Source: Stegostoma tigrinum (lineage: Eukaryota). Taken from it: a DNA stretch of 64,000 nt. The stretch is taken from NCBI RefSeq assembly GCF_030684315.1, contig NC_081355.1, positions 21,787,316-21,851,315 on the forward strand, written 5' to 3'. Positions 2,126 to 63,150 of the stretch are shown here, in pieces. The notes below the pieces were generated by a model. That model did not search any database. It was not told where the DNA came from and saw only the letters and a program-made list of their open reading frames with translations. The stretch's first letter is position 1. Each line of letters opens with the position of its first letter. Both the position numbers and the translations under genes were made by a program.

Positions 2126-2449
2126 ATGAGCAATCTCACTATGGGAGAGGAAAACAAATGCAGTCAGTTCTGACGCTCAGGTCTTTTGTTTGGCACCATT
2201 ACCCGAGGAGCAATGAGCCCAACCACTGCTCCCTGCGCGTGGACCTTATCGGGGGGGGCGGGGGAGGGGAAAGCAAACCCTCAGGAAAGGAGGGAGGGGT
2301 GTGGAGGAGCCATAGGTGGGTTTCTGTCAACGATGGTGGGCGAAGTAGGAATTAGACTATGGGGCCCAGCGGGGGCTCCCTCGGTTGTGGATTTCTGACA
2401 GGATAGGAAGGAGGGAAAAAGATGGGGAATCCAGGCGACGGTCAGAGGG

Positions 2450-3200
2450 ACCCGATAGCCCGGACTAGTGGCGTGGGGAACTGGCCACCGCTGTGTCGCA
2501 GCAAGGACGAGCTCGAATCCCTACTGGGAGGAGCGCGGAGGAACTGAAGGAGGATTCAGCAGCCCCCTCGAGTGGGGGAGGGGGTGAGGGTGCAGGGGTT
2601 ATCGCTCTGTGGTCACTCACGAAATTATCCCTGAAGTCGCTGTCCGGGCACAGGACGTAGAAGGAAACGCCGGGGTCCGCGTAGAAATCCAGTCGGCTCT
2701 CGGCCTCTTCAGTGGCGATCAGCTCGAACGGGGTGTTGTAGCACCACTTGTCCGCGATGTCGACGAACTGCTGGAATTCCATGGCCGCCCGCCGCCTCCG
2801 GCTCCTCCTCTCCGGTGTGGCTGGCCGGCGGGCGGAGGTGTTAGATGCGGTGGCGGGTGTTTACGAGTCAGTCCGGTCCGTTAGCGTCAGGCGCGATCTC
2901 TGCCGCCGCATCGGCCTCAGAGGAGAGCGCGGCTGATGGCGCGCGCCGCTCTTTGTTTTCGCTGTTGGGGGAGGGAAGGGACGGGAGTGGTCGCTGCTTT
3001 GCTTGTGGAACGGACGGTGTGCACCTCTATCACTGTAATGCGCCGCCGCACTGTGCGGCTCGCGCTCCTGCTCGCCACCAACCAATGCGAATGGCAGCGG
3101 CGCTGGGTGGGCGGGCAGTCCCACCCACACCGACGGCGGTATTGCTGCACGTGTATATTCTTGGATTAACATATGGTATCCGCCTACGTTGCTCATTTGT
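2450..3200 (-). promoter_or_regulatory. CpG island / MTURN promoter and 5' UTR
   Basis: GC- and CpG-rich segment around exon 1; CCAAT at ~3082-3086 and a GGGCGG box at ~3109-3114. Confidence 0.75.
2621..2782 (-). CDS. MTURN: Maturin (neural progenitor differentiation regulator), coding exon 1
   Basis: 162 nt = MEFQQFVDIADKWCYNTPFELIATEEAESRLDFYADPGVSFYVLCPDSDFRDNF, closely matching the recalled human MTURN N-terminus (MDFQQLADVAEKWCSNTPFELIATEETERRMDFYADPGVSFYVLCPD). Strong Kozak GCGGCC-ATG-G, followed by a GTGAGT donor at 2620-2615. Confidence 0.95.
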
Positions 3201-4139
3201 AAAGTCAGTCGTCTTTTGCGTTCTTAAAGACTGCACGTTTTGTCTTAAGAAACAAATAAACTAAGTTTAAACTTAAAAAAAGTACTTTAATTTATATAAT
3301 ACCTTTCTGGACCACAAGATGTTCGAAACAACTTTAAAGCAGATTACTGTATCTTTCACCTGCATTCCGACTGTAACTTCAGTGTGCATTACTCTACTAA
3401 CAATTCAAAACTAGGGGGCATATTTTGAACCCTCTAGCCATAGGGAAAATGCCCTTGTGCTTCACCTTATCTATGTTGTAAGATCACCCATCAACCCATG
3501 CTCCAGTGAAAATTGTCCTAGCCTATTCAAACCCTCCATTCCTGGCAAATCTACAATTTTCTTTTCAAAATTGCATAAATATAAACTGGATATTTGATTA
3601 ATTTAATTTGACTGAATAAAACTGTTTTGTATCCAGAATATAAGCATGAGGGTTGTGATGTGTGACCTTTATCAATTTTAAATTTGCAGACAGTTAAAAA
3701 AAATGAAGACAAATCATGTAGTTACCCATTAAGCAGTTGATGTAGTAGCTTACAACATATGTTCTTAGTAATGCTGAATGATATATTCTAACAAAAGAGA
3801 TTTTTGTCAATGATTTTTCTCTTGCACTCATCAGGACAATTTACAAGAATTAGCGATTTGAGGTAAGGCAACGTTAATACTATATGCCATACATTGGTTA
3901 TACTGCATCCACTGTACCCGGTGCGGCTTCCTCTACATTGGGGAAACCAAGCGGAGGCTTGGGGACCGCTTTGCAGAACACCTCCGCTCAGTTCACAACA
4001 AACAACTGCACCTCCCAGTCGCAAACCATTTCCACTCCCCCTCCCATTCTCTAGATGACATGTCCATCATGGGCCTCCTGCAGTGCCACAATGATGCCAC
4101 CCGAAGGTTGCAGGAACAGCAACTCATATTCCGCCTGGA

Positions 4140-5460
4140 AAAAAAATCCCACTTCCTACAGACTAAGGGGGTGGCCATGGGCACCCGCATGGGCCCCAGC
4201 TATGCCTGCCTCTTTGTAGGTTACATGGAACAGTCCCTCTTCCGCACCTACACAGGCCCCAAACCCCACCTCTTCCTCCGGTACATTGATGACGGTATCG
4301 GCGCCGCCTCTTGCTCCCCAGAGGAGCTCAAACAGTTCATCCACTTCACCAACACCTTCCACCCCAACCTTCAGTTCACCTGGGCCATCTCCAGCACATC
4401 CCTCACCTTCCTGGACCTCTCAGTTTCCATCTCAGGCAACCAGCTTGTTACTGATGTCCATTTCAAGCCCACCGACTCCCACAGCTACCTAGAATACACC
4501 TCCTCCCACCCACCCTCCTGCAAAAATTCCATCCCCTATTCCCAATTCCTCCGCCTCCGCGGCATCTGCTCCCACGATAAGACATTCCACTCCCGCACAT
4601 CCCAGATGTCCAAGTTCTTTAAGGACCGCAACTTTCCCCCCACAGTGATTGAGAACGCCCTTGACCGCATCTCCCGTATTTCCCGCAACACATCCCTCAC
4701 ACCCCGCCCCCAGAGGATCCCCCTCGTTCTCACACACCACCCTACCAACCTCCTGATACAACGCATTATCCTCCGACACTTCCGCCATTTACAATCCGAC
4801 CCCACCACCCAAGACATTTTTCCATCCCCTCCCCTGTCAGCTTTCCGGAGAGACCACTCTCTCCGTGACTCCCTTGTTCGCTCCACACTGCCCTTCAACC
4901 CCACCACACCCGGCACCTTCCCCTGCAACCGCAGGAAATGCTACACTTGTCCCCACACCTCCTCCCTCACTCCCATCCCAGGCCCCAAGATGACATTCCA
5001 CATTAAGCAGAGGTTCACCTGCACATCTGCCAATGTGGTATACTGCATCCACTGTACCCGGTGCGGCTTCCTCTACATTGGGGAAACCAAGCGGAGGCTT
5101 GGGGACCACTTTGCAGAACACCTCCGCTCAGTTCGCAACCAACAACTGCACCTCCCAGTCGCAAACCATTTCCACTCCCCCTCCCATTCTCTAGATGACA
5201 TGTCCATCATGGGCCTCCTGCAGTGCCACAATGATGTCACCCGAAGGTTGCAGGAACAGCAACTCATATACCGCCTGGGAACCCTGCAGCCATATGGTAT
5301 CAATGTGGACTTCACCAGTTTCAAAATCTCCCCTTCCCCTACTGCATCCCTAAACCAGCCCAGTTCGTCCCCTCCCCCCACTGCACCACACAACCAGCCC
5401 AGCTCTTCCCCCCCACCCACTGCATCCCAAAACCAGTCCAACCTGTCTCTGCCTCCCTAA
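4140..5460 (+). pseudogene. Open but N-truncated PLE ORF (C-terminal half of RT + thumb + GIY-YIG endonuclease)
   Basis: Uninterrupted frame in the ORF track; N-terminal RT motifs are missing. The first ~27 aa of the 4060 ORF derive from a duplicated endonuclease segment. Confidence 0.85.
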
Positions 5461-5684
5461 CCGGTTCTTCCTCTCACCCATCCCTTCCTCCCGCCCCAAG
5501 CCGCACCCCCAGCTACCTACTAACCTCATCCCACCTCCTTGACCTGTCCGTCTTCCCTGGACTGACCTATCCCCTCCCTACCTCCCCACCTACACTCTCT
5601 CCACCTATCTTCTTTACTCTCCATCTTCGGTCCGCCTCCCCCTCTCTCCCTATTTATTCCAGCTCCCTCTCCCCATCCCCCTCT

Positions 5685-5712
5685 CTGATGAAGGGTCTAG
5701 GCCCGAAACGTC
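5685..5712 (+). ncRNA. Minimal type I hammerhead ribozyme motif in PLE pLTR
   Basis: CTGATGA-A-GGGT(CTAG)GCCC-GAAAC-GTC: intact CUGANGA and GAAA boxes, 4-bp helix II, palindromic ACGT helix III, GUC cleavage triplet. Confidence 0.8.
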
Positions 5713-5778
5713 AGCTTTTGTGCTCCTGAGATGCTGCTTGGCCTGCTGTGTTCATCCAGCCTCACATTTTATTATCTT

Positions 5779-6055
5779 GGCATATTTTTAATGTTAGGAG
5801 GAAGGTTTATAAAGGACATGATGGGCAACTTTTTTCTCCCCTCACACAGAGTGGTTCATATGTGGAATGAACTGCCAGAGGAAGTGGTGGATGTAGATTA
5901 ACTTCCAACATTTAAAAGATGTTTGGATAAGTCCATGAATAGGAAAGGTTTGGAAGGATATAGGTCAAATGCAGGCAAGACGTATTTAGTTTGGGAAATA
6001 GTTGGTATGTACTAGATGAACTGAAGGATCTGTTTCCATGCTGTATGACTATAAG
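5779..6055 (+). mobile_element. CR1 LINE 3' end fragment
   Basis: Similar to the CR1 3' ends at 40250-40530 and 58220-58525 (…TGGAATGAACTGCCAGAGGAAGTGGTGG…GCTGTATGACT). Confidence 0.8.
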
Positions 6056-6127
6056 AGATTAACATTCTTTAAAGCTGTAGAGTATAAAAGATGCTCTAAA
6101 TGTCTGAATAAGATACTGTAAAGACAG

Positions 6128-6256
6128 AGATAATGGGAACTGCAGATGCTGGAGAATTCCAAGATAATAAAATGTGAGGCTGGATGAACACAGCAGGCCC
6201 AGCAGCATCTCAGGAGCACACAAGCTGACGTTTCGGGCCTAGACCCTCCATCAGAG
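6128..6256 (-). mobile_element. Solo PLE terminus (same family as 3895-5778) with 12-bp TSD
   Basis: Reverse complement of the 5680-5780 terminus plus a ~35-nt tail; flanked by CTGTAAAGACAG at 6116-6127 and 6257-6268. Hammerhead box mutated to CTGATGG. Confidence 0.9.
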
Positions 6257-6350
6257 CTGTAAAGACAGCTTCTGTTTACCTGCAGCCCAATGAAGACCTA
6301 ACAGTCAGGCATATAATTAAACCTAGAATTAAAAGAATAAACCTACTCAA

Positions 6351-7351
6351 CGATAGTAGGAACTGCAGATGCTGGAGAATCTGAGACAACAAGGTGTAGA
6401 GCTGGATGAACACAGCAGCCAAGCAGCATTAAAGGAAGAGGAAAGCTGATGTTTCGGGCCTAGGCCCTTTTTCAGAAGTGGGGGAGGGAATGGGGGCTCT
6501 GAAATAAATAGGGAGGTGGATACAATACGGATAGAAGATAGGTGGAAAGGAGACAGGTAGGTCAAAGAGGCAAGGATGGAGCCAGTAAAGGTGAGTGTAG
6601 GTGGGGAAGTAGGGAGAAAGGTCAGTGCAGGGAGGACGGACAGGTCAAGGGGATGGGATGGGGTTAGTAGGTAAGAGAAGGGGGTGGGGCTTGAGGTGGG
6701 AGGAGTGGATAGGTGGGAGGCAGGGACGAGTCGGGCTGGTTTTGGGATGCTGTAGGGGGAGGGTAGATTATGAAGCCTGTGAAGTCCACAACTGCACCTC
6801 CCAGTTGCGAACCATTTCAACACCACCGCCCATTCCTCAGATGACATGTCCATCCTGGGCCTCGTGCAGTGCCACAATGATGCTACCCGAAAGTTAAAGG
6901 AACAGCAACTCATATTCCGCTTGGGAACCCTGCAGCCCAATGATATCAATGTGGACTTCACAAGCTTCATAATCTCCCCTCCCCCTAATGAATCCCAAAA
7001 CTAGCCCAGTTCGTCCCTGCCTCCCTAACCTGTCCTTCCTCCCACCTCAAGCCCCACCCCTATCTCCTACCTACAACCTCTTCCCACCCCCTTGACCTGT
7101 CCGTCCTCCCTGAACTGACCTATCTCTCCGTACCTCCCCACCTACACTCACCTTTACTGGTTCCATCCCTGCCTCTTTGACCTGTTGGTCTCCTCTCCAC
7201 CTGTCTTCTCTTTTATCCATCTTCTATCCGCCTCCCCCTCTGTCTCTATTTATTTCAGAACCCCCTTCCCTCCCCCTTTTCTGAAGAAGTGTCTAGACCC
7301 AAAACGTCAGCTTTCCTGCTCCTCTGATGCTGCTTGGCCTGCTGTGTTCAT
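6351..7351 (+). mobile_element. PLE fragment with inverted 5' segment (~400-bp inverted arms)
   Basis: 6388-6790 is the diverged reverse complement of ~6950-7350; the centre encodes the GIY-YIG C-terminus. TSD AAACCTA(C/T)TCAA at 6339-6350 and 7352-7363. Confidence 0.88.
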
Positions 7352-7535
7352 CCAGCTCACCACCTTATCTCAAACCTATTCAAACTTTAGTTTTCAACCT
7401 GATACAGATACTTCCTTCATTTTAGTGTAACCCTCACTGTGTCTGGTGAAACTAAGAAATAAACACAATAAATTTAGATAAACCATGCTTCTTAGCCCCC
7501 TTGATCTCATCCTGAGTTAATATTTTAAATACTAG

Positions 7536-7573
7536 ATAACACTGTGTGAAGCTGAATGAACACAGCGGGCCAC
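7536..7573 (-). mobile_element. 38-bp PLE 3'-end insertion with 12-bp TSD
   Basis: ATAACACTGTGTGAAGCTGAATGAACACAGCGGGCCAC matches the PLE terminus; TTTAAATACTAG at 7524-7535 and 7574-7585. Confidence 0.8.
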
Positions 7574-8428
7574 TTTAAATACTAGTCCAGTCTAAGTGAT
7601 AGAAATTAACATGCATTTACCACCGGTACTAACTATATGTTTAAAATTTTAAATGAACAAAAGAATCATGGGTGAATATACATAAATTTGTGAATCCATG
7701 CAAAGCTGAGGCAAAAATGGTACAAGATTATATTGGCAAATCTAAAGTTGTTGATCAGTTCCTTCAACAGAGTTATCCATGGTAGAGGTCCTCTGATTAC
7801 TGGAATAGTATTATTACATTTGAGAAGGTAGAGAAACACTCATTATCAGAAACTTACTGATAAAAGAAAATAAGTTTAATCTCTCCAGAAAAGGGAAGTC
7901 TGTAGAGTCCAGATGACACAGTGGAAGTGTGATTAAATTCTCCTCCTGAAGGGCAATACAAACATAGAATAAGTTAAAAGAAAAACAGCTCTGAAATAGT
8001 CATCATAAACAGGTTCAAGGGATGATTTGACATGGAAAGGGAGAAAAAGAGGACCACGTGAGAGATAGGGGAAAACACAAAGGTGAATGGAGAACAACAG
8101 AGAAATCTTGGTCCCAACTTTTCAGTGATGAGAAAATAAGGTTATTCCTTCCAAAAGTCATTTCATTTTAAAATTACTATTTAGTAAAGCATAATGCATC
8201 TTGCAAAATTTCACATTAATAGTTATGCCATTCCATTCACAGCTTCTTGGTTTGGCACACTAAGGCTTTCGGTATCTGACTTACAAGTTTTACAGAATAA
8301 TGTTAAAAACAGTAAATATGAATTACTTAAAGAAAATATTGCTGCATGCTTTGACTGCTTCCACATTGAAAGGACATAACCACAAAAGTCTGGAAAACAA
8401 TACACCATTTTAAAGCAGTGCATGGCAC

Positions 8429-21059: not shown

Positions 21060-22200
21060 ACTTGAAACTGCATGCATCTCAGGTAGATGGCAGGAAGCAG
21101 ATGGTAATGATCAAAGGGTATTTTTCTGACTGGAAGCCCACGTCCTGTGGAGTACCACATGGTCCAGTTCTGGACCCTGTTATTTGTTGTGTATATTAAT
21201 GATCTAGACATGAATCTAGGAGGTATGATCAGTAAATTCACAGATGAAACAAAATTGGTGGTGTGGCAAATCGTGAGGAGCTTAGGCTACGTAGTCAGGC
21301 TGGTCCGATGGTCTTGACAATGGAAAATTCGTTCTTGAAAAGTATGAGGTGATGCATTTTGGGAGAACTAACAAGGCAAGCACGTACATGTCAAATGGTA
21401 GGACTCAAGGAAAAACAGAGGACCCAAGGGACCATGATGTGCATGTCCATTGCTTCTTGAAGGCAGCAGGACAGTGGATATGCTGGGTAAGAAGGTACAT
21501 GGACTATTTGCCTCTATTGGTCAAGGCACTGAATACAAGGCCATGTAGGTTATGATGAAGCTGTAAATAACATTTGTTAGGGCACAGCTGGAATACTTTG
21601 TGCAGTTCTGGTCACCATACTATAGGAAGGATGTGACTGTACTGGAAGAGAACAGTTTCAACTGAACAGGAGCGAAACTGCTGGAAAGCGACAAGATATA
21701 ATAGAGATAAGAGCTCTGAAGAAGGGTCTAGGCCCGGAACGTCAGCTTTTGTGCTCCTGAGATGCTGCTTGGCCTGCTGCGTTCATCCAGCTACACACTT
21801 TGTTATCTAAGCTATAAGAGAATTGTTTTGCTTACAGCAAAGAGGGCCGCGATTGAGGTATATAAGCTTAAGTTTGATAGACATATCGGTAGTTAGACAG
21901 AAACCTTTCCCCGTACAGGAGTCAATAATCAGGGAGCACAATTCTAAGATAGGGAAAAAGAGAGGTTTAGAGGGGATTTCAGGGATTATTTTATCCCCCA
22001 GGAGGTCGAGGGTATCTCGAATTCTCTGCGGGAACTCCGAAGGCATTAAAGGACTATTCAGATGAATACTTGAAAGGCTATAGCATACAAGGTATGGGCC
22101 AAGAGCTGGAAAATGGAATTAGAACAGACGTTCGATCGCCGGCACAGACGTGATGGGGCGAAGGACCTTTTCCGTGTTGTATAAACTCTATCTCCGGTGC
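21060..22200 (+). mobile_element. CR1 LINE 3' ~1.1 kb, degenerate, interrupted by a PLE terminus at ~21712-21807
   Basis: RT C-terminal remnants (MHFGRTNK; YFVQFWSPYYRKD) and CR1 tail. The inserted PLE terminus has CTGAAGA…GGAAC (mutated GAAA box). Confidence 0.8.
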
Positions 22201-28114: not shown

Positions 28115-28333
28115 AAGAGATAACAAGGTGTAGAGCTGGATGAACACAGCAGGACAAGCAGCATCAGAGGAGCAGGAAAGCTGACATTTCGGGTCTAGAC
28201 CCAGATTATCTGAAGAAACATCTAGACCCAAAACATCAGCTTTCATGCTCCTCTGATATTCTTGGCCTGCTGTGTTCATCCAGCCCTACAACTTGTTACC
28301 TCAGATTCTCCAGCATCGGCAGTTCCTACTATC
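28115..28333 (+). mobile_element. Fold-back pair of PLE termini (inverted) with degenerate hammerheads
   Basis: 28118-28202 is the inverse of 28210-28300; tail on the right arm only; imperfect TSD ATCTCATC(C/T)TCAG(A/G)AAT at 28098-28114 and 28331-28347. Confidence 0.85.
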
Positions 28334-32635: not shown

Positions 32636-33111
32636 GTGAGATTTGTTACTTAAAACTTATTTGCTGCTTCTAGTTGACTAGTTGGTTATGGTGGTTATAA
32701 GTGCAGTACTTGCTTATGTGAAGCTATACTTGAAGATTTCTTGAACATTTTTCTTCATGAAGTTGATGTCTCAGAGTGGACTACTATCACTTGAGTATCA
32801 GCAGGCTCTGGTGCAGATCTATTTATCATTTGGGAATGTGCACAAGCTGTAGGATGGTTTAATTAAAAACCAGCTTAAGTAGTAAAAGACACCACATGTT
32901 ACTATTGTTCTTGTGTTATCCGGAATAGTTTAAATTTTTATTGTATGCAATCATTCTTCAGCATAGAAAGCAAGGTACAAGCAGAGCCAATATGGCATAA
33001 TTGAATGTATGTAAATAGTCATCTCCAATATATAAAAAAAGCTAATAGTTATATGCTGATTTTTCACTGATTTTGTTTTGCTACCTGTTCTTGATTGCTT
33101 CTTTTACCACT

Positions 33112-33916
33112 TAATTGTGGATAGAATTTCCTGAGTCAATACCAATTACCTGTTGGCCTACAGCACATGTGTTGGTCACAAGGAGGCCCCAGCGAGATTT
33201 TTTTTCCCCATTTCAGCTGGTTCTGGATTTCAGCTGGTTTTGAACTAGAGAAAAACCTGAGTATTGGTTTGTGGTATTCATTTTCAACTAAGTTGGCCAA
33301 TCAAATTAACATTCATATTAAATCTGTAATGATTTAATGTGCTCCATAAGATGTGTGTACTCAGAACTAGGTTCATTTTAATTTGCCAAAATCTCATGAC
33401 ATTGCAAATTGTCCATCTTCCTTCTGACATAAGATTGCAGCTTTGTCAGCTATTGCAAATCTGTAAACAACTTAATATTTCCTGCAGCAAAACTGGAAGT
33501 TGCTGGAAAAGCTCAGTAGGTCTGGCAGCATGTACGATGAGAAATCGGAGTTAAAGTTTTGAGTCTGGTGACCCTTCCTCACTGTTCTGAAGGACCTGAT
33601 GAGCTTTTCCAGCAACATCTGTTTTTGTTTCTGATTTACAGCATCCACCGTTCTGTTGGTTTTTAATTAATATTACCTGTTGGCTATTGTCATTATTGTG
33701 CTGCTGCCTAAGACTAATTTCTAATGTTTTTAGTGCTATTTTTCAGTTTCCAACTCATGTCAAAAATTGTAATAGCAGTATTGTATGTAGTTTTCCATGG
33801 TACACACATTTACTTACTGAATGACATATTGTGTTCAATAGCTGTTACATTGGAGCAGTATAAAACATTAACTTTGCACTGCCATACAGGAAAATAAAAT
33901 TGTATCAGTGATAATG
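33112..33916 (+). repeat. 805-bp segment duplicated at 42137-42941 (copy 1, in last METTL6 intron)
   Basis: Constant offset of 9025 bp; identical ORFs 33339-33554 and 42364-42579; only one mismatch noticed (GGCCCC vs GGCCCT). Confidence 0.95.
33485..33666. mobile_element. Fold-back PLE-type termini (family 3) with 13-bp TSD; also present in the duplicate
   Basis: GTTGCTGGAAAAGCTCA inverted against TGAGCTTTTCCAGCAAC; TSD TTAATATT(T/A)CCTG at 33472-33484 and 33667-33679. Confidence 0.8.
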
Positions 33917-34869
33917 ATTGATTGCTTCTTTTACCACATAATGCCTGATACGGTGGTGCCTTTCTTAATTCTAAGTGAAATTCAGTATGTGCTTATCTGC
34001 ACTGATAATTTGCTATACCTCGACAACTTTTCTGTTGTTGCAACTTTGTCAACCTTGAACATTGTAGCTGACAGTACTGGTTTCATCTTGTTTCCTGGCT
34101 AACCTTTAACCTGCAATCTCTCTCTCTCCCGATTTTCCAATCTTATGTATCAACATGCTTCATCCTTTTTTGTAATGAAGTATATTGTATTCTTCTTTAC
34201 ATTTTAATTTACTTCCTCAGTGTCTTTGCTATCTAAATCTTTTGTCTTCTATATTCCTTCATTAATCTTCTCATACAGTATAACACAGTGATTAGAATCA
34301 CGGGTGCTGTCACTTGTGCAATCATAGGTGCCATCCAAAGTAACCTAAACCATGGGTATAATTCGATATAAGTCACCACATCCACCTTCAAGATTTCTTG
34401 GTTTGTCTGTTGTGTTTGCTTATTGTCTTGTAAAATGTGCGTCGTAACATTTTTGTGAATTTCTTGTTCAGTGTTCATGGATTTCAGCTCCATTTCAAGG
34501 AATGGTGCTATTTAGTGTCCAATGAGAAAAATCAAGCAATTTTGCACATTTTCAGGGAAGTCTCAATTATGGCTGGGTCACATTATAATCATGCTGCAGT
34601 ACCGCTGTCTTCTCACTGTTTTGGGTCATTTCACTTGGAAACATGTGCAATTGATGTTCCTACCATTTTGGTTCTTAATTATTAATAACTTTCTTCACAT
34701 AATCCCGTTAATACATTCAAGTTCATTTTTAACACAACTGGCACTATTTGACAACAGATATTGCTTGATTTAACTACTTCTAGCCTTGATATTTTGAATT
34801 TTATCCATGAATGCACTTTTGCTTCTTTGACCACTCAATTTCCTCTTATTATGTTTTGAAGTATTTTCT

Positions 34870-39339: not shown

Positions 39340-40532
39340 AACCAAAGGACTGGTGAGAATGAATTGCTGTAGTGTATATGGATTTTAACAAGACATTTGA
39401 TAAGATTCCCCATGGTAGGCTCATTCAGAAAGTAAGGAGGTATGGGATTCGGGGAAATTTGGCTGTCTGGATACAAAACTAGCTGTCCAAAAGAAGACTG
39501 AGGGTGGTAGTAGATGGAAAGTATTCAACCTGGAGCTCGGTATCCAGTGATGTTCTGCAGGGATCTGTTCTGAGACCTCTGCTCTTAGTGAGCTTTATAA
39601 ATTACTTGGATGAGGAAGTGGAAGGGTGAGTTAGTAAGTTTGCCGATGACACAAAGGTTGGTGGAGTTGTGGCTAGCATGGAGGGCTGTTGGAGGCTGCA
39701 ATGGGACACTGACAGGATGCAGAGCAGGGCAAAGAAGTTGCAGATGGAATTCAACCCAGAAAAGTGTGAAGTGATTCATTTTGGAAGGTCGAATTTGAGT
39801 GCAGATTATAGGGTTAGTGGCAGGATTCTTGGCAGGGTGGAGGAACAGAACGATTTTGGGGTCCAAGTCTTTGGATCCCTCAAAGTTGCCACCCATGTTG
39901 ATAGGGTTGTTAAGAAGGCATATGGCGTGTTGGCTTTCATTGGCAGGGGAATTGAGTTTAAGAGTCGCAAGGTTGCACTGCAGCTTTATAAAACCCTGGT
40001 TAGACCACATTTGGAATATTGTGTTCAGTTCTGGTTGCCTCATTATAGGAAGGATGTGAAAGCTTTAGGAAGGGTGCAGAGGAGATTTACCAGGATGCTG
40101 CCTGGACTGGAGGGCAGTTCTTATGAAGAAAGTTTGAGGGAACTTGGGTTTTTTCTCATTTGAGTGAAGAAGGATGAGAGGTGACTTGCTGGAGGTCTAC
40201 AAGATGATGAGAGGCATAGAAAGGGTGGATTGCCAGAAACTTTGTCCCAGGGCAGAAATGACTATCACAAAAGGGCATAATTTTGAGGTGGTTGGAAGAA
40301 GGTCTAGGGGAGATGTCAGAGTTGGGTTCTTTGCACAAAGTGGTGGGCGTGTGGAATGCGCTGCCAGCAGTCATAGTGGAATCAGATATTTTAGAGACCT
40401 TTTAAGTGACTCTTGGATAGGCACATGGATGTTAGTATAATGGTAGGGTATACAGGGTAGATTGATCTTAGTAGGATAATAGGTTGGCACAACATCATTA
40501 GCCAAAGGGCCTGTACTGTTCTATGTTCTATG
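39340..40532 (+). mobile_element. CR1 LINE (HER1-like) 3' 1.2 kb, relatively young
   Basis: ORF 39669-40163 = CR1 RT C-terminus (QMEFNPEKCEVIHFGR…LYKTLVRPHLEYCVQFW); SKFADDTK upstream; tail GGGCCTGTACTGTTCTATGTTCTATG. Confidence 0.92.
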
Positions 40533-40559
40533 ACACAAATTAGTATTAATAAAATAAAA

Positions 40560-42136: not shown

Positions 42137-42941
42137 TAATTGTGGATAGAATTTCCTGAGTCAATACCAATTACCTGTTGGCCTACAGCACATGTGTTGG
42201 TCACAAGGAGGCCCTAGCGAGATTTTTTTTCCCCATTTCAGCTGGTTCTGGATTTCAGCTGGTTTTGAACTAGAGAAAAACCTGAGTATTGGTTTGTGGT
42301 ATTCATTTTCAACTAAGTTGGCCAATCAAATTAACATTCATATTAAATCTGTAATGATTTAATGTGCTCCATAAGATGTGTGTACTCAGAACTAGGTTCA
42401 TTTTAATTTGCCAAAATCTCATGACATTGCAAATTGTCCATCTTCCTTCTGACATAAGATTGCAGCTTTGTCAGCTATTGCAAATCTGTAAACAACTTAA
42501 TATTTCCTGCAGCAAAACTGGAAGTTGCTGGAAAAGCTCAGTAGGTCTGGCAGCATGTACGATGAGAAATCGGAGTTAAAGTTTTGAGTCTGGTGACCCT
42601 TCCTCACTGTTCTGAAGGACCTGATGAGCTTTTCCAGCAACATCTGTTTTTGTTTCTGATTTACAGCATCCACCGTTCTGTTGGTTTTTAATTAATATTA
42701 CCTGTTGGCTATTGTCATTATTGTGCTGCTGCCTAAGACTAATTTCTAATGTTTTTAGTGCTATTTTTCAGTTTCCAACTCATGTCAAAAATTGTAATAG
42801 CAGTATTGTATGTAGTTTTCCATGGTACACACATTTACTTACTGAATGACATATTGTGTTCAATAGCTGTTACATTGGAGCAGTATAAAACATTAACTTT
42901 GCACTGCCATACAGGAAAATAAAATTGTATCAGTGATAATG
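42137..42941 (+). repeat. 805-bp duplicate of 33112-33916 (copy 2)
   Basis: Direct comparison of both copies; breakpoints TAATTGTGG… and …GTGATAATG. Confidence 0.95.
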
Positions 42942-43115
42942 GGAACTGCAGATGCTGGAGAATCCAAGGTAACAAAGTGTGAAGCTGGATGAACACAGCA
43001 GGCCAAGGGTCTAGGCCTGAAACGTCAGCTTTTGTGCTCCTGAGAAACGTCAGCTTTTGTGCTCCTGAGATGCTGCTTGGCCTGCTGTGTTCATCCAGCT
43101 TCACACTTTGTTATC
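42933..43115 (+). mobile_element. Young fold-back PLE termini abutting the duplicate, with internal 25-bp tandem duplication
   Basis: 42933-43005 is an inverted terminus with tail; 43006-43115 is a forward terminus; GAAACGTCAGCTTTTGTGCTCCTGA occurs at 43019-43043 and 43044-43068. Confidence 0.9.
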
Positions 43116-57734: not shown

Positions 57735-58525
57735 GGGTGATGTATTCTGGGAGGTCAACTGCAACAGAAAAGGACACAGCAAGTGGCAGGACCCTTAGGA
57801 GGATTGATATACAGAGGGATCTTGGGTTGCAAGTCCATAGCTCCCTGCAAGTGGCAACACAGGTGGATAAGGGTAAAGCAGGCATATGGCATGCTTGCCT
57901 CCATCAGTTGGCACATTGAATACCAGAGTTGGCAAGTAACATTACAGCTGTGTAAAACTTTAGTTAGGCCACATTTGGAGCATTTTGAACAGCTCTGTTC
58001 GCCACACTGGATGAAGGATGTGGAGGCATTGGAAAGGGTGCAAAAGAAGTTTACCAGGTCATTGCCTGGATTGGAGTGTATTAGCTATAAGGAGTGGTTG
58101 GACTAACTTGGATTGTTTTCATTAGAACATCCGACGCTAAGAGGTTACCTTAGAGAATTATATAAAATTATGAGAGGCATGGATAGAGTGGTTAGTTGGA
58201 GTCTTTTTCCTAAGGTAGAAATGTTAAATACTAGGGTCTATCGTTTTAAGAAAAGAGGGGGAAAGATTAAAGGAGATGTGTGAGGCAAGGTTTTTGCATG
58301 GTGGGTGATATATACCGGAACATGCTTTCAGGGGCGGTAGTAGAAGCACTTCCAATAGCAATGTCTAGGACGCATTTAAACAGAATCATGAACAGGAAGG
58401 GAATAGAGAGAGACAGACCATCTGCAGGCAATGGGCTTAGTTTAGACTGGCATCCTGGCCGGCGCAGTCATGGTGGGCTGAAGGGCCTGTTCCTGTGCTG
58501 TACACTGTATGTTCCATGTTCTATA
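57735..58525 (+). mobile_element. CR1 LINE 3' 0.8 kb
   Basis: ORFs 57737-57919 and 57783-58106 (QRDLGLQVHSSL; KTLVRPHLEH…ALERVQKKFTR); tail GGGCCTGTTCCTGTGCTGTAC…TTCTAT. Confidence 0.9.
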
Positions 58526-61274: not shown

Positions 61275-63150
61275 TTAAGAACAAAGAACAATACAGCACA
61301 GGAACCAGGGCCTTTGGCCCTCCAAGTCTAGGCCAATACATTTTACCCTTCCATATTAAAACTGTGTTCACTTACATGATCTATTCATGTATTCGTCCAG
61401 GTGCTTCTTGAACACTGCTATTGGGTCTGCTTCCACCATCTCCTCTGGCAGAGTTCCTGGTTCTCACCACCCTTTGTGTGAAAAACCTGCCTCGCACATG
61501 GCTTTTAAACTCCCCTCGCACCTTGAACCTGTGTCCCCTTGTAATTGTTCACTCCACCCTTGGAGAACACCTCATACTTTCCATTCTATCCATGCATTCG
61601 CTACTCTATCAGGTCGCCCTTCTAACTCCTGCATTCCAGTGAAAACTGACCCAGTCTATCTGATCTTTCTCCATAACTAAAATCCCCCATACCAGGCAAC
61701 ATCATGGTAAATTTTTTCTGTACTCTCTGCAAAGGATCCACAACCTTCTGGCAATGTGGTGACCAGAACTTTACACAATATTCCAAGAGTGGCCTAGCTA
61801 AAGTTCTATAAAGCTGCGGCACAACATGTCTATTGCTATACTCGATGCCTCCTTCAATGAAAGCAAGCATGCCATAGGCCTTTTTTACTACATTATCTAC
61901 CTGTACTGCCACCTTCAGTGATCTGTGGACCTGCACACCCAAATCCCTCTGCATATCAATACCCTGAAGGGTTCTGTCATTCACTGTATAATTTCCACTT
62001 GTACTTGACCTTCCAAAATGCATCACCTCACATTTGTCCAGATTAAACATCACCTGCCATTTTTCTGCCCATGCCTCCAACTGATCACTATCCTGCTGTA
62101 TCCTCTGATAATCCTCTTCGCTATCCACAACTCCATCAATCATTTTATCGTCTGCAAACTTGCTAATTAGACCAGCTACGTTTACATCCACATCATTTAC
62201 GTGGATCCTTTATTCATTCACAGGATGAGGGTGTCGCTTTTTTGGTGGCACTTATTGCTCATCTCCCAGTTGCTCAGAGAGTCAACCACATTGCTGTGGG
62301 TGTGGAGTCACATGTAGGCCAGACCAGGCAAGGACAGCAATCCCCCTCCCCAAAGGACACCAGCGAACCAGATGGGCCCTTCCAACAATCGACAACAGCT
62401 TCATGGTCATCACTAGATCCATAATTCCAGATAATTTTTCATTTATTTCAAATTCCATTATCTGCCTTAGCCGGACTTGAACCTAGAATGTTATCTTGGT
62501 CTCAGCAACAGTACCACTAGGCCATTGCCTCCCCTGATCATAAGATCATGAACAGTAGAGGTTCCAGCATTGATCCCTGTGGAACACCACTAGTCACAAC
62601 CCTCCATTCCGAAAAGCGTCCTTCCACCGCTTTCCTCTGTCTCCTATGACTAAGCCAGTTCTGTACCCATATTGCCAGCTCACCCTTGATACTATGTGAC
62701 TTTACATTTTGTACCAGTCAGCCATGAGGAACTTCATCAAAGGTTTTATTGAAATCCATGTAGACACCAACTGCTTCTCCCTCACAATCATCTTTGTCAC
62801 CTCCAAAAAAATCTCAATCAAGTTAGTGATGCACAACCTCCCTTGCACAAAACCATGCTGTTTATTGTTAATCAGTCTATCTGTTTCTAAATTGCTTATA
62901 GACCGGTCCCTAAGAATCTGAACCAATTATTTCACTCCCACTGATGTGAGGCTCACAGGCCTGTAATTCCTGGATTATCGCTGTTATCCTTTTTAAACAA
63001 TGGGAGAACATTAGCTATTCTCCAGTCCTCTGGGACCTCAGCTGTGACCAAAGAGGATACAAAGATGTCTGTCAATGCTCCAGCAATTTATTATCTTGTC
63101 TCCCTCAAAATTTTGGGATTGATCCCATCAAGACCCAGGGATTTATCTTA
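61275..63150 (-). mobile_element. CR1 LINE RT + tail, with nested SINE at 62205-62535
   Basis: ORF 61622-62191 (ISKFADD…FNLDKCEVMHFGR…YCVKFWSP) and 62702-62926 (KQHGFVQGRLCITNLIE). Confidence 0.92.

Follow-up and report, generated by a model that had tools for sequence, protein, structure and literature searches.

In cell clones and tumors, L1 insertion can invert the upstream end of its target site, or duplicate it in inverted orientation, with the target duplication preserved and priming from hairpins of 2 bp, as described in the accessible text of Mendez-Dorantes et al. (10.1101/2024.12.14.628481). The 'snap-back' 5' junctions of R2 PRINT insertions contain an antisense copy of nearby target DNA made before 5' joining (PMC11371274, accessible part), and in yeast a short inverted repeat beside a double-strand break primes intra-strand copying that yields fold-back inverted duplications (PMC11724301 and PMC10622511, accessible parts). 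A Penelope protein cleaves and extends both strands in vitro (PMC11167929), and inverted 5' copies, tails, and capture of host DNA are known for these elements (PMC3846280, PMC8557442), as far as the accessible text of these papers goes. Here, we describe a 64,000-nucleotide stretch of Stegostoma tigrinum DNA (contig NC_081355.1, positions 21,787,316 to 21,851,315; hereafter the window, in whose coordinates all positions are given), which contains a real, well-preserved germline case of flank remodeling, very probably insertion-coupled, by a Penelope-like element, with ∼470 host bases inverted. The reading that we favor, with a probability of roughly 60%, is that a young Penelope-like element was integrated aberrantly, in a single event, into an old copy of CR1 and that during this event the upstream end folded back, copied its own flank and primed on the element RNA, the forward arm of the resulting inverted duplication being deleted.

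The locus behaves as the inverted-duplication class of L1 plus a deletion. As in the accessible account of L1, hundreds of flank bases are reversed between the upstream host DNA and the 5' end of the element, the target duplication is preserved, priming would have come from a small hairpin of a few bases, and the site has probably undergone deletion. Unlike L1, the element is Penelope-like (with a GIY-YIG nuclease and no poly-A), and the event is germline and found in two samples. Moreover, small-hairpin priming would here be combined with loss of the forward arm, so that the duplication copy stays direct, 470 bp from the element, a combination that differs from the L1 cases in that account. 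The locus likewise resembles R2 snap-back in having target sequence from close by copied in antisense between host and insert, although R2 snap-back was assigned to priming by the end of the complementary DNA (cDNA), in cultured human cells and in ribosomal DNA, and the accessible text describes no arm deletion. With the yeast fold-backs the locus shares a short inverted repeat at a break that would prime intra-strand copying, whereas those events, in the accessible parts of both papers, involve no retroelement and are local duplications of mostly 5-34 bp or else chromosome-scale. Finally, 5' truncation, a partial tandem, tailed and tail-less 3' ends, a short duplication, and use of both target strands are shared with canonical Penelope insertions as described in the accessible text of PMC3846280, PMC8557442, and PMC11167929. 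In contrast, the inverted 5' arm is here host flank of the target site with at most 7 nt of inverted element, and it derives from the target site itself, whereas canonical captured DNA lies between pseudo-long terminal repeats (pseudo-LTRs) and comes from elsewhere. A literature search mostly confined to papers outside subscription yielded no Penelope insertion reported to carry a fold-back inversion of its target flank, and the L1 and R2 supplements may hold closer cases; the accessible parts of PMC12910113, PMC9977147, and PMC6278893 contain nothing on local flank inversion at Penelope insertions.

Anatomy of the insertion and its flank

The insertion is bracketed, over ∼2.35 kb, by a 10-bp direct repeat, GGCATATTTT, which within the window is present only at 3417 and 5779 and had been proposed as a candidate target-site duplication. 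A direct match of at least 10 bases in the same geometry arose in 28 of 5000 random placements. Among 10 other loci of the family in the window, three have adjacent duplications of 12, 12, and 13 bp, so that the focal 10-11 bp falls within the family range; two more have weaker matches of 7-8 bases, and in five no match was trusted. In short-read contigs from two samples (X14 and X15, see below), an extra T after 3422 brings the repeat to 11 bp, which is probably the length of the target duplication, and the loop of the adjoining hairpin to 13 nt. We conclude that the 10-bp repeat (11 bp in the contigs) is the target duplication of the Penelope insertion 3899-5780, kept between its primary and reciprocal ends (3417-3426 and 5779-5789).

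The hairpin noted at the left junction is also present, with a stem of TTCAAAA (3404-3410) and TTTTGAA (3423-3429), and it folds back exactly where the left copy of the duplication ends. A stem of at least 7 bp over a fixed point was obtained in 33 of 3000 random placements, and the contigs of X14 and X15 span the junction with 0 substitutions. The inverted host DNA, 3423-3890, carries microhomology at the fold-back, an AAAA/TTTT pairing, seen as the 7-bp stem in the product. Of the forward arm of the inverted duplication 7 bases are left, so that one arm is complete rather than both.

The orientation before the event was read from the interrupted CR1 copy. When 3423-3560 is reverse-complemented and followed by 3411-3426 and 5789-6060, the composite aligns across both joins to four (50763-50502, 61659-61381, 58204-58502, and 40215-40534) of the six other CR1-like copies found by BLAST over more than 100 bases, the other two being too short for the joins. 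In the multiple alignment, join 1 is gap-free in all four copies and a gap of at most 2 nt follows join 2. The colinearity of the three pieces, a central claim of the original prediction, therefore stands, and it polarizes the change, the re-oriented order being the original one. These CR1 copies are only 50-60% identical; against the same copies, the inverted piece has 50-53% identity and the right piece 54-60%, values that are compatible with one another. On its own, the inverted piece beat 100 shuffles against only one of five copies (61350-62000, score of 53 and shuffle maximum of 37), and its match to 58060-58280, the comparator chosen in that prediction, is no better than shuffled sequence (34 versus 40).

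The inverted DNA extends beyond the CR1 sequence, contrary to what an inversion by CR1 twin priming would give. No CR1 similarity was found in 3561-3890 in either orientation, and no second copy of 3551-3890 was found within the window. Because these ∼330 bases are single-copy and not CR1, CR1 twin priming is excluded.

At the far end of the inverted block, an old host junction had been proposed from the reappearance of CAAT (3401-3404) as ATTG (3893-3896), with the element starting at ∼3895. An exact 4-base match was found in 5862 of 10,000 random tries and a gapped extension in 933 of 10,000, i.e. at chance level, and the element start is corrected to 3899. With moderate confidence, the ATTG letters are better read as part of a 7-nt inverted Penelope snippet, the reverse complement of 5030-5036. 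This segment lies 2 nt upstream of the 5' truncation point (3899 corresponds to 5039), an arrangement that twin priming accompanied by a small internal deletion would leave, as described in the accessible text of 10.1101/2024.08.27.596794. An equally placed exact 7-mer was found in 46 of 20,000 random host 15-mers, one placed anywhere in 242 of 20,000, one on either strand in 255 of 10,000, and a gapped one in 249 of 10,000. The position of the snippet at the truncation point suggests that the end of the host copy met the element RNA, and hence that copying took place inside the integration event.

The element itself has one open reading frame (4147-5457), in which reverse transcriptase (RT) motifs are followed by a C-terminal GIY-YIG endonuclease (EN) domain. 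The PF01541 match of the 5' duplicate piece passes its cut-off (32 bits versus 22.6), whereas the RVT_1 and GIY-YIG matches of the 4147-5780 piece are weak and below the curated cut-offs, the former because the RT is 5'-truncated. A CX4CxxC linker is located before the GIY-YIG motif; elements of the Neptune/Nematis type are recognized by a zinc-finger-like CX2-5CxxC linker that separates RT from EN (PMC8557442, accessible part). Judged from linker and domains rather than from a tree, the element would be an EN+ Penelope-like element of this type. The 5' piece 3899-4138 differs from 5039-5278 at 5 of 240 bases, and a frame is open throughout 3862-5457, including across the eight A bases that follow the 5' piece. 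Among 13 3' ends of the family in the window, five end at the tail, three at TTATC(T), and the others are degraded or cut short; the family thus has two classes of 3' end, with and without a tail of 30-40 bp. The focal 3' end lies 1-3 nt past that of the tail-less class, which includes the copies at 21808, 28118, and 43115. Two-armed Penelope insertions with 3' ends facing outward, the usual both-strand pattern, are found at 6352-7360, 28118-28333, and 42935-43115. A candidate hammerhead core motif was located at 5685-5708 in the pseudo-LTR by pattern matching (free fold z of 0.14); a search of 3000-7600 against Rfam returned no hammerhead family, its sole hit (E 2.8) being chance. A 30-nt pattern from the element had 0 matches in metagenome contigs.

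Short-read contigs from three organisms

A search of sequencing runs yielded 20, of which four from organism C contain 85-87% of the sampled words and 13 (12 from organism A and one from organism B) contain 5-14%, three having been added by label. Contigs were compared for four of the 20 runs and for the region 2440-3930: X14 and X15 from organism C (samples S8 and S9 of one study, either of which may be the source of the window), X5 from organism A, and X13 from organism B.

In X14 and in X15, 2440-3849 is contained in a single contig that differs from the window by 25 gap letters and 0 substitutions. As both span the hairpin junction, the latter is not an assembly artifact, and the contigs suggest that both organism C samples are homozygous for it, though contigs drop variants. 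The window differs from both by 1-base indels at 2475, 3225, and 3422 and probably by a 22-base gap at ∼3472, which are assembly errors or a different haplotype. In the multiple alignment, 22 bases of other CR1 copies are missing from the 3423-3560 piece, and X14, X15, and X5 each have 22 otherwise unplaced gap letters. We considered whether those in X14 and X15 hide a longer palindrome at the hairpin and rejected this, because the 22-base gap falls inside the inverted CR1 piece and the organism A piece 3461-3680 also has 22 gap letters (a placement of the gap that we infer). At 3849 the X14 and X15 contigs stop, inside a repeat, and 3850-3899 is covered by none of the listed pieces; this hole, like those at 2990-3239 and 3390-3789 in X13, carries no evidence. 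Apparent joints 3548-3822, 3834-3901, and 3837-3903, whose sides measure 21-24 letters, were assigned to other loci. An old high-copy repeat remnant (∼3793-3852), with a hammerhead-like core on the minus strand, lies inside the inverted block. Depth at 3790-3839 is in the thousands in all four runs compared, and the repeat is therefore older than the focal Penelope family.

In organism A, the X5 pieces 2440-2645, 2805-3124, 3302-3407, 3461-3680, and 3697-3885 differ from the window at 85 of 1041 letters. One contig follows the window as far as 3407 and runs on for 160 letters without listed placement on the window, and the distal piece stops at 3885 with 29 unplaced letters. No listed X5 piece crosses 3408-3460 or contains the 3404-3429 junction, the contigs being broken and not bridging the site. 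We did not encounter the empty allele that had been predicted, in which CAAT would be joined directly to reverse-complemented 3427-3892. At 3740-3789 the depth is 8.05, fully explained by one other contig, versus 19.3 expected if the 160 letters were the reversed far end, so these letters do not lie there. Probably, then, organism C has lost ∼150 or more bases of host DNA that once separated the flank from the inverted block. TTCA is found at 3404-3407, where the alignment to organism A stops, and it also ends the inverted CR1 piece; this microhomology may have been used at the deletion junction. Within the upstream flank, organism A has 18 other letters in place of the 72 at 3230-3301, an unrelated indel.

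Summed depth over 3890-3930, which includes the first 32 bases of the element and is not to be read as copy number, is 807868 in X14, 591471 in X15, 382 in X5, and 0 in X13, which indicates that the family expanded in the lineage of organism C. Organism A has both flanks yet is nearly without this family, and the Penelope family is younger than the split from organism A, as is probably the rearrangement. The 2.1% difference between the two endonuclease copies, compared with 8.2% between species, would place the insertion roughly within the last quarter of that time.

Proposed course of the integration and its rivals

We infer the following order of steps, together with the fold-back, the deletion route, and the enzyme. 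The nuclease of the element would have made a staggered cut with an overhang of ∼11 nt, the length recorded by the duplication, and the bottom strand would have primed reverse transcription at the tail-less start usual in the family, to within 1-3 nt. The upstream end may then have been resected, and its 3' T-run would have paired with the nearest AAAA, 13 nt back, out of nine AAAA starts in the reconstructed overhang. Copying of ∼465 nt of flank backwards by a polymerase would have given an inverted duplication, of which the inverted copy is in place. As 3891-3897 suggest, the new end may have annealed to, or briefly primed on, the element RNA 2 nt from the cDNA stop before being joined. Fold-back copying alone gives an inverted duplication, so deletion of the forward arm is also required; comparison with organism A suggests that this palindrome arm and ∼150 or more host bases were removed via TTCA microhomology, at fill-in or later. 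The result would resemble an inversion, the target duplication lying 470 bp away from the element. Judging from the coinciding breakpoints and the anatomy of the junctions, the inversion would have been simultaneous with integration. What we retain of the original prediction is thus its core, a folded-back target end priming a copy of its upstream flank, for which the fold-back at the end of the duplication, the length of the latter, the usual 3' end, and the lineage timing all speak; what it lacked is the extra arm deletion, and the empty allele that it predicted was not seen.

Several points weigh against this course of events. The 4-bp fold-back stem has a free energy of +0.8 kcal/mol and is unstable alone, and the arm deletion is a second step whose timing is not fixed. 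The host-element junction, 3890-3899, is read from the window assembly alone, and the test of the snippet, made after seeing the sequence, gives moderate evidence. The organism A contigs show no orientation of 3461-3885 relative to the flanks, so that the empty allele is not read letter by letter, and the 160 letters could be an A-specific insertion at the same point. This is, moreover, one locus only, non-coding and of modest weight by itself: among the 10 other window copies, displaced 10-base matches were found only at L9899. The two matches there, considered as a displaced duplication, were judged to be chance, one being an A-run.

In the same integration, the 3' end of the cDNA might instead have invaded the flank ∼470 bp upstream, copied towards the cut, and joined the overhang via AAAA/TTTT without any hairpin. 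This would leave the same letters without calling for the unstable 4-bp stem, and the accessible part of PMC11371274 reports R2 insertions in which cDNA ends prime on nearby target DNA before 5' joining. We nevertheless consider it improbable, because the 7-nt inverted snippet with its 2-nt gap has the geometry of twin priming, which needs the end of the host copy as primer; target-templated snap-back is the less frequent kind in R2 according to the same part of that source, and loss of the forward arm would still be needed. Quite improbable, too, is a normal insertion whose flank was flipped and trimmed later by an unrelated template switch during repair or replication. Host cells in general can fold back broken ends through short inverted repeats (PMC11724301 and PMC10622511, accessible parts), and the data bound both events only to the period after the split from organism A, but the later break would have had to hit the ∼11-bp duplication and be rejoined at the truncation point beside the inverted snippet. 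Integration might also have been coupled to a true inversion through a large hairpin, as in the 'inversion' class of L1, after which the 13-nt loop that lies between AAAA and TTTT was flipped in a separate event, returning the duplication copy to direct orientation. With the extra T counted, such a flip leaves 3411-3426 with identical letters; this route takes two rare events plus a 7-bp stem arising by chance, no long self-annealing homology is visible, and CAAT/ATTG is at chance level, which makes it very improbable. An inversion older than the element (by CR1 twin priming or an ancient rearrangement) or an assembly artifact is extremely improbable, for although the organism A contigs show no orientation directly and small indels separate the window from the short-read contigs, twin priming cannot make the non-CR1 bases, organism C contigs span the hairpin junction, and organism A departs at 3407. 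That the rearrangement was coupled to integration, by whichever of the routes that allow it, is very probable.

If correct, the fold-back reading means that insertion can be coupled to flank inversion not just in somatic human L1 but also in an unrelated class of retroelement and in the vertebrate germline. It would also document the sequence of events at the 5' junction of Penelope integration, a poorly understood site, with host-templated copying before or during RNA priming. It provides a searchable signature (a displaced duplication, a fold-back stem at its end, inverted flank, and a tiny inverted element snippet) that could be counted across a very abundant family, and it cautions that annotation can miss the duplications of such elements. 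Because Penelope proteins cut and extend both target strands, we tentatively raise the possibility, which is unlikely on present evidence, that Penelope integration has an intrinsic branch in which a folded-back flank is copied and the new end then primes on the RNA of the element itself, possibly carried out by the telomerase-related RT. Were this so, a very high-copy family would regularly supply the germline with sub-kilobase inversions and deletions and with copies of host DNA, and its duplications would be hidden, hundreds of bases away from the element.

Gene context and other features of the window

The rearrangement junction lies ∼620 bp upstream of the start codon of an MTURN-like gene (Table 1), beyond the GC-rich part of the promoter and in DNA made up partly of old repeats. 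We take the PF15167 family to be maturin (MTURN). The DNA is CpG-rich to ∼3400, and GC content drops after ∼3200. A long, G-rich, strongly skewed minisatellite-like array with units of ∼17-25 nt occupies 1-2100, in the first intron of the gene.

Table 1. Features at and around the rearranged insertion, in window coordinates
Feature	Position	Strand	Basis
First coding exon of MTURN-like gene	2603..2782	-	Pfam PF15167 DUF4581, E 6e-21; start codon at 2782
Unrearranged upstream host flank	3130..3407		Colinear, with two skips, with organism A contig record 25
TTCAAAA, 5' hairpin arm, probable remnant of deleted forward arm and putative deletion junction	3404..3410	+	Sequence
Left target-site duplication copy	3417..3426	+	11 bp with extra T; first GG common to element end
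Inverted 5' part of older 5'-truncated CR1 3' end, starting with hairpin 3' arm 3423-3429	3423..3560	-	Colinear with window CR1 copies once reversed; orthologous piece 3461-3680 in organism A
Inverted non-CR1 host DNA, single-copy in window	3561..3890	-	Organism A pieces 3461-3680, 3697-3885
ACATTGG, reverse complement of element 5030-5036; possible twin-priming-like snippet or annealing site	3891..3897	-	Sequence
5' Penelope fragment, GIY-YIG coding	3899..4138	+	Second copy of 5039-5278; PF01541 E 1.6e-07
Eight A bases joining endonuclease fragment to mid-RT	4139..4146	+	Possibly internal template jump or junction of a deletion
5'-truncated Penelope body, probably of Neptune/Nematis type: RT end, CX4CxxC linker, GIY-YIG, 3' untranslated region, pseudo-LTR	4147..5780	+	Open frame 4147-5457, Pfam, motif scan
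Right target-site duplication copy	5779..5789	+	Sequence match
Remainder of interrupted CR1 3' end, original orientation	5789..6060	+	CR1 alignment

A second copy of host DNA tied to the tail of the same Penelope family is found in the same 64 kb. It is a direct copy of 805 bp with 1 difference (33112-33916 and 42137-42941), and its 33-kb member is flanked by a 20-bp direct repeat (33091-33110 and 33918-33937), which identifies this member as the inserted one. The last 7 bases of the copied DNA (17 bases if 42925-42934 is also tail) belong to the tail of the two-armed Penelope insertion 42935-43115. A small fold-back left of the element at 42935 was dropped as a candidate, the identical flank occurring at 33.9 kb. 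The 33112-33916 copy resembles a very recent Penelope-linked transduction whose source is flank DNA 9 kb away.

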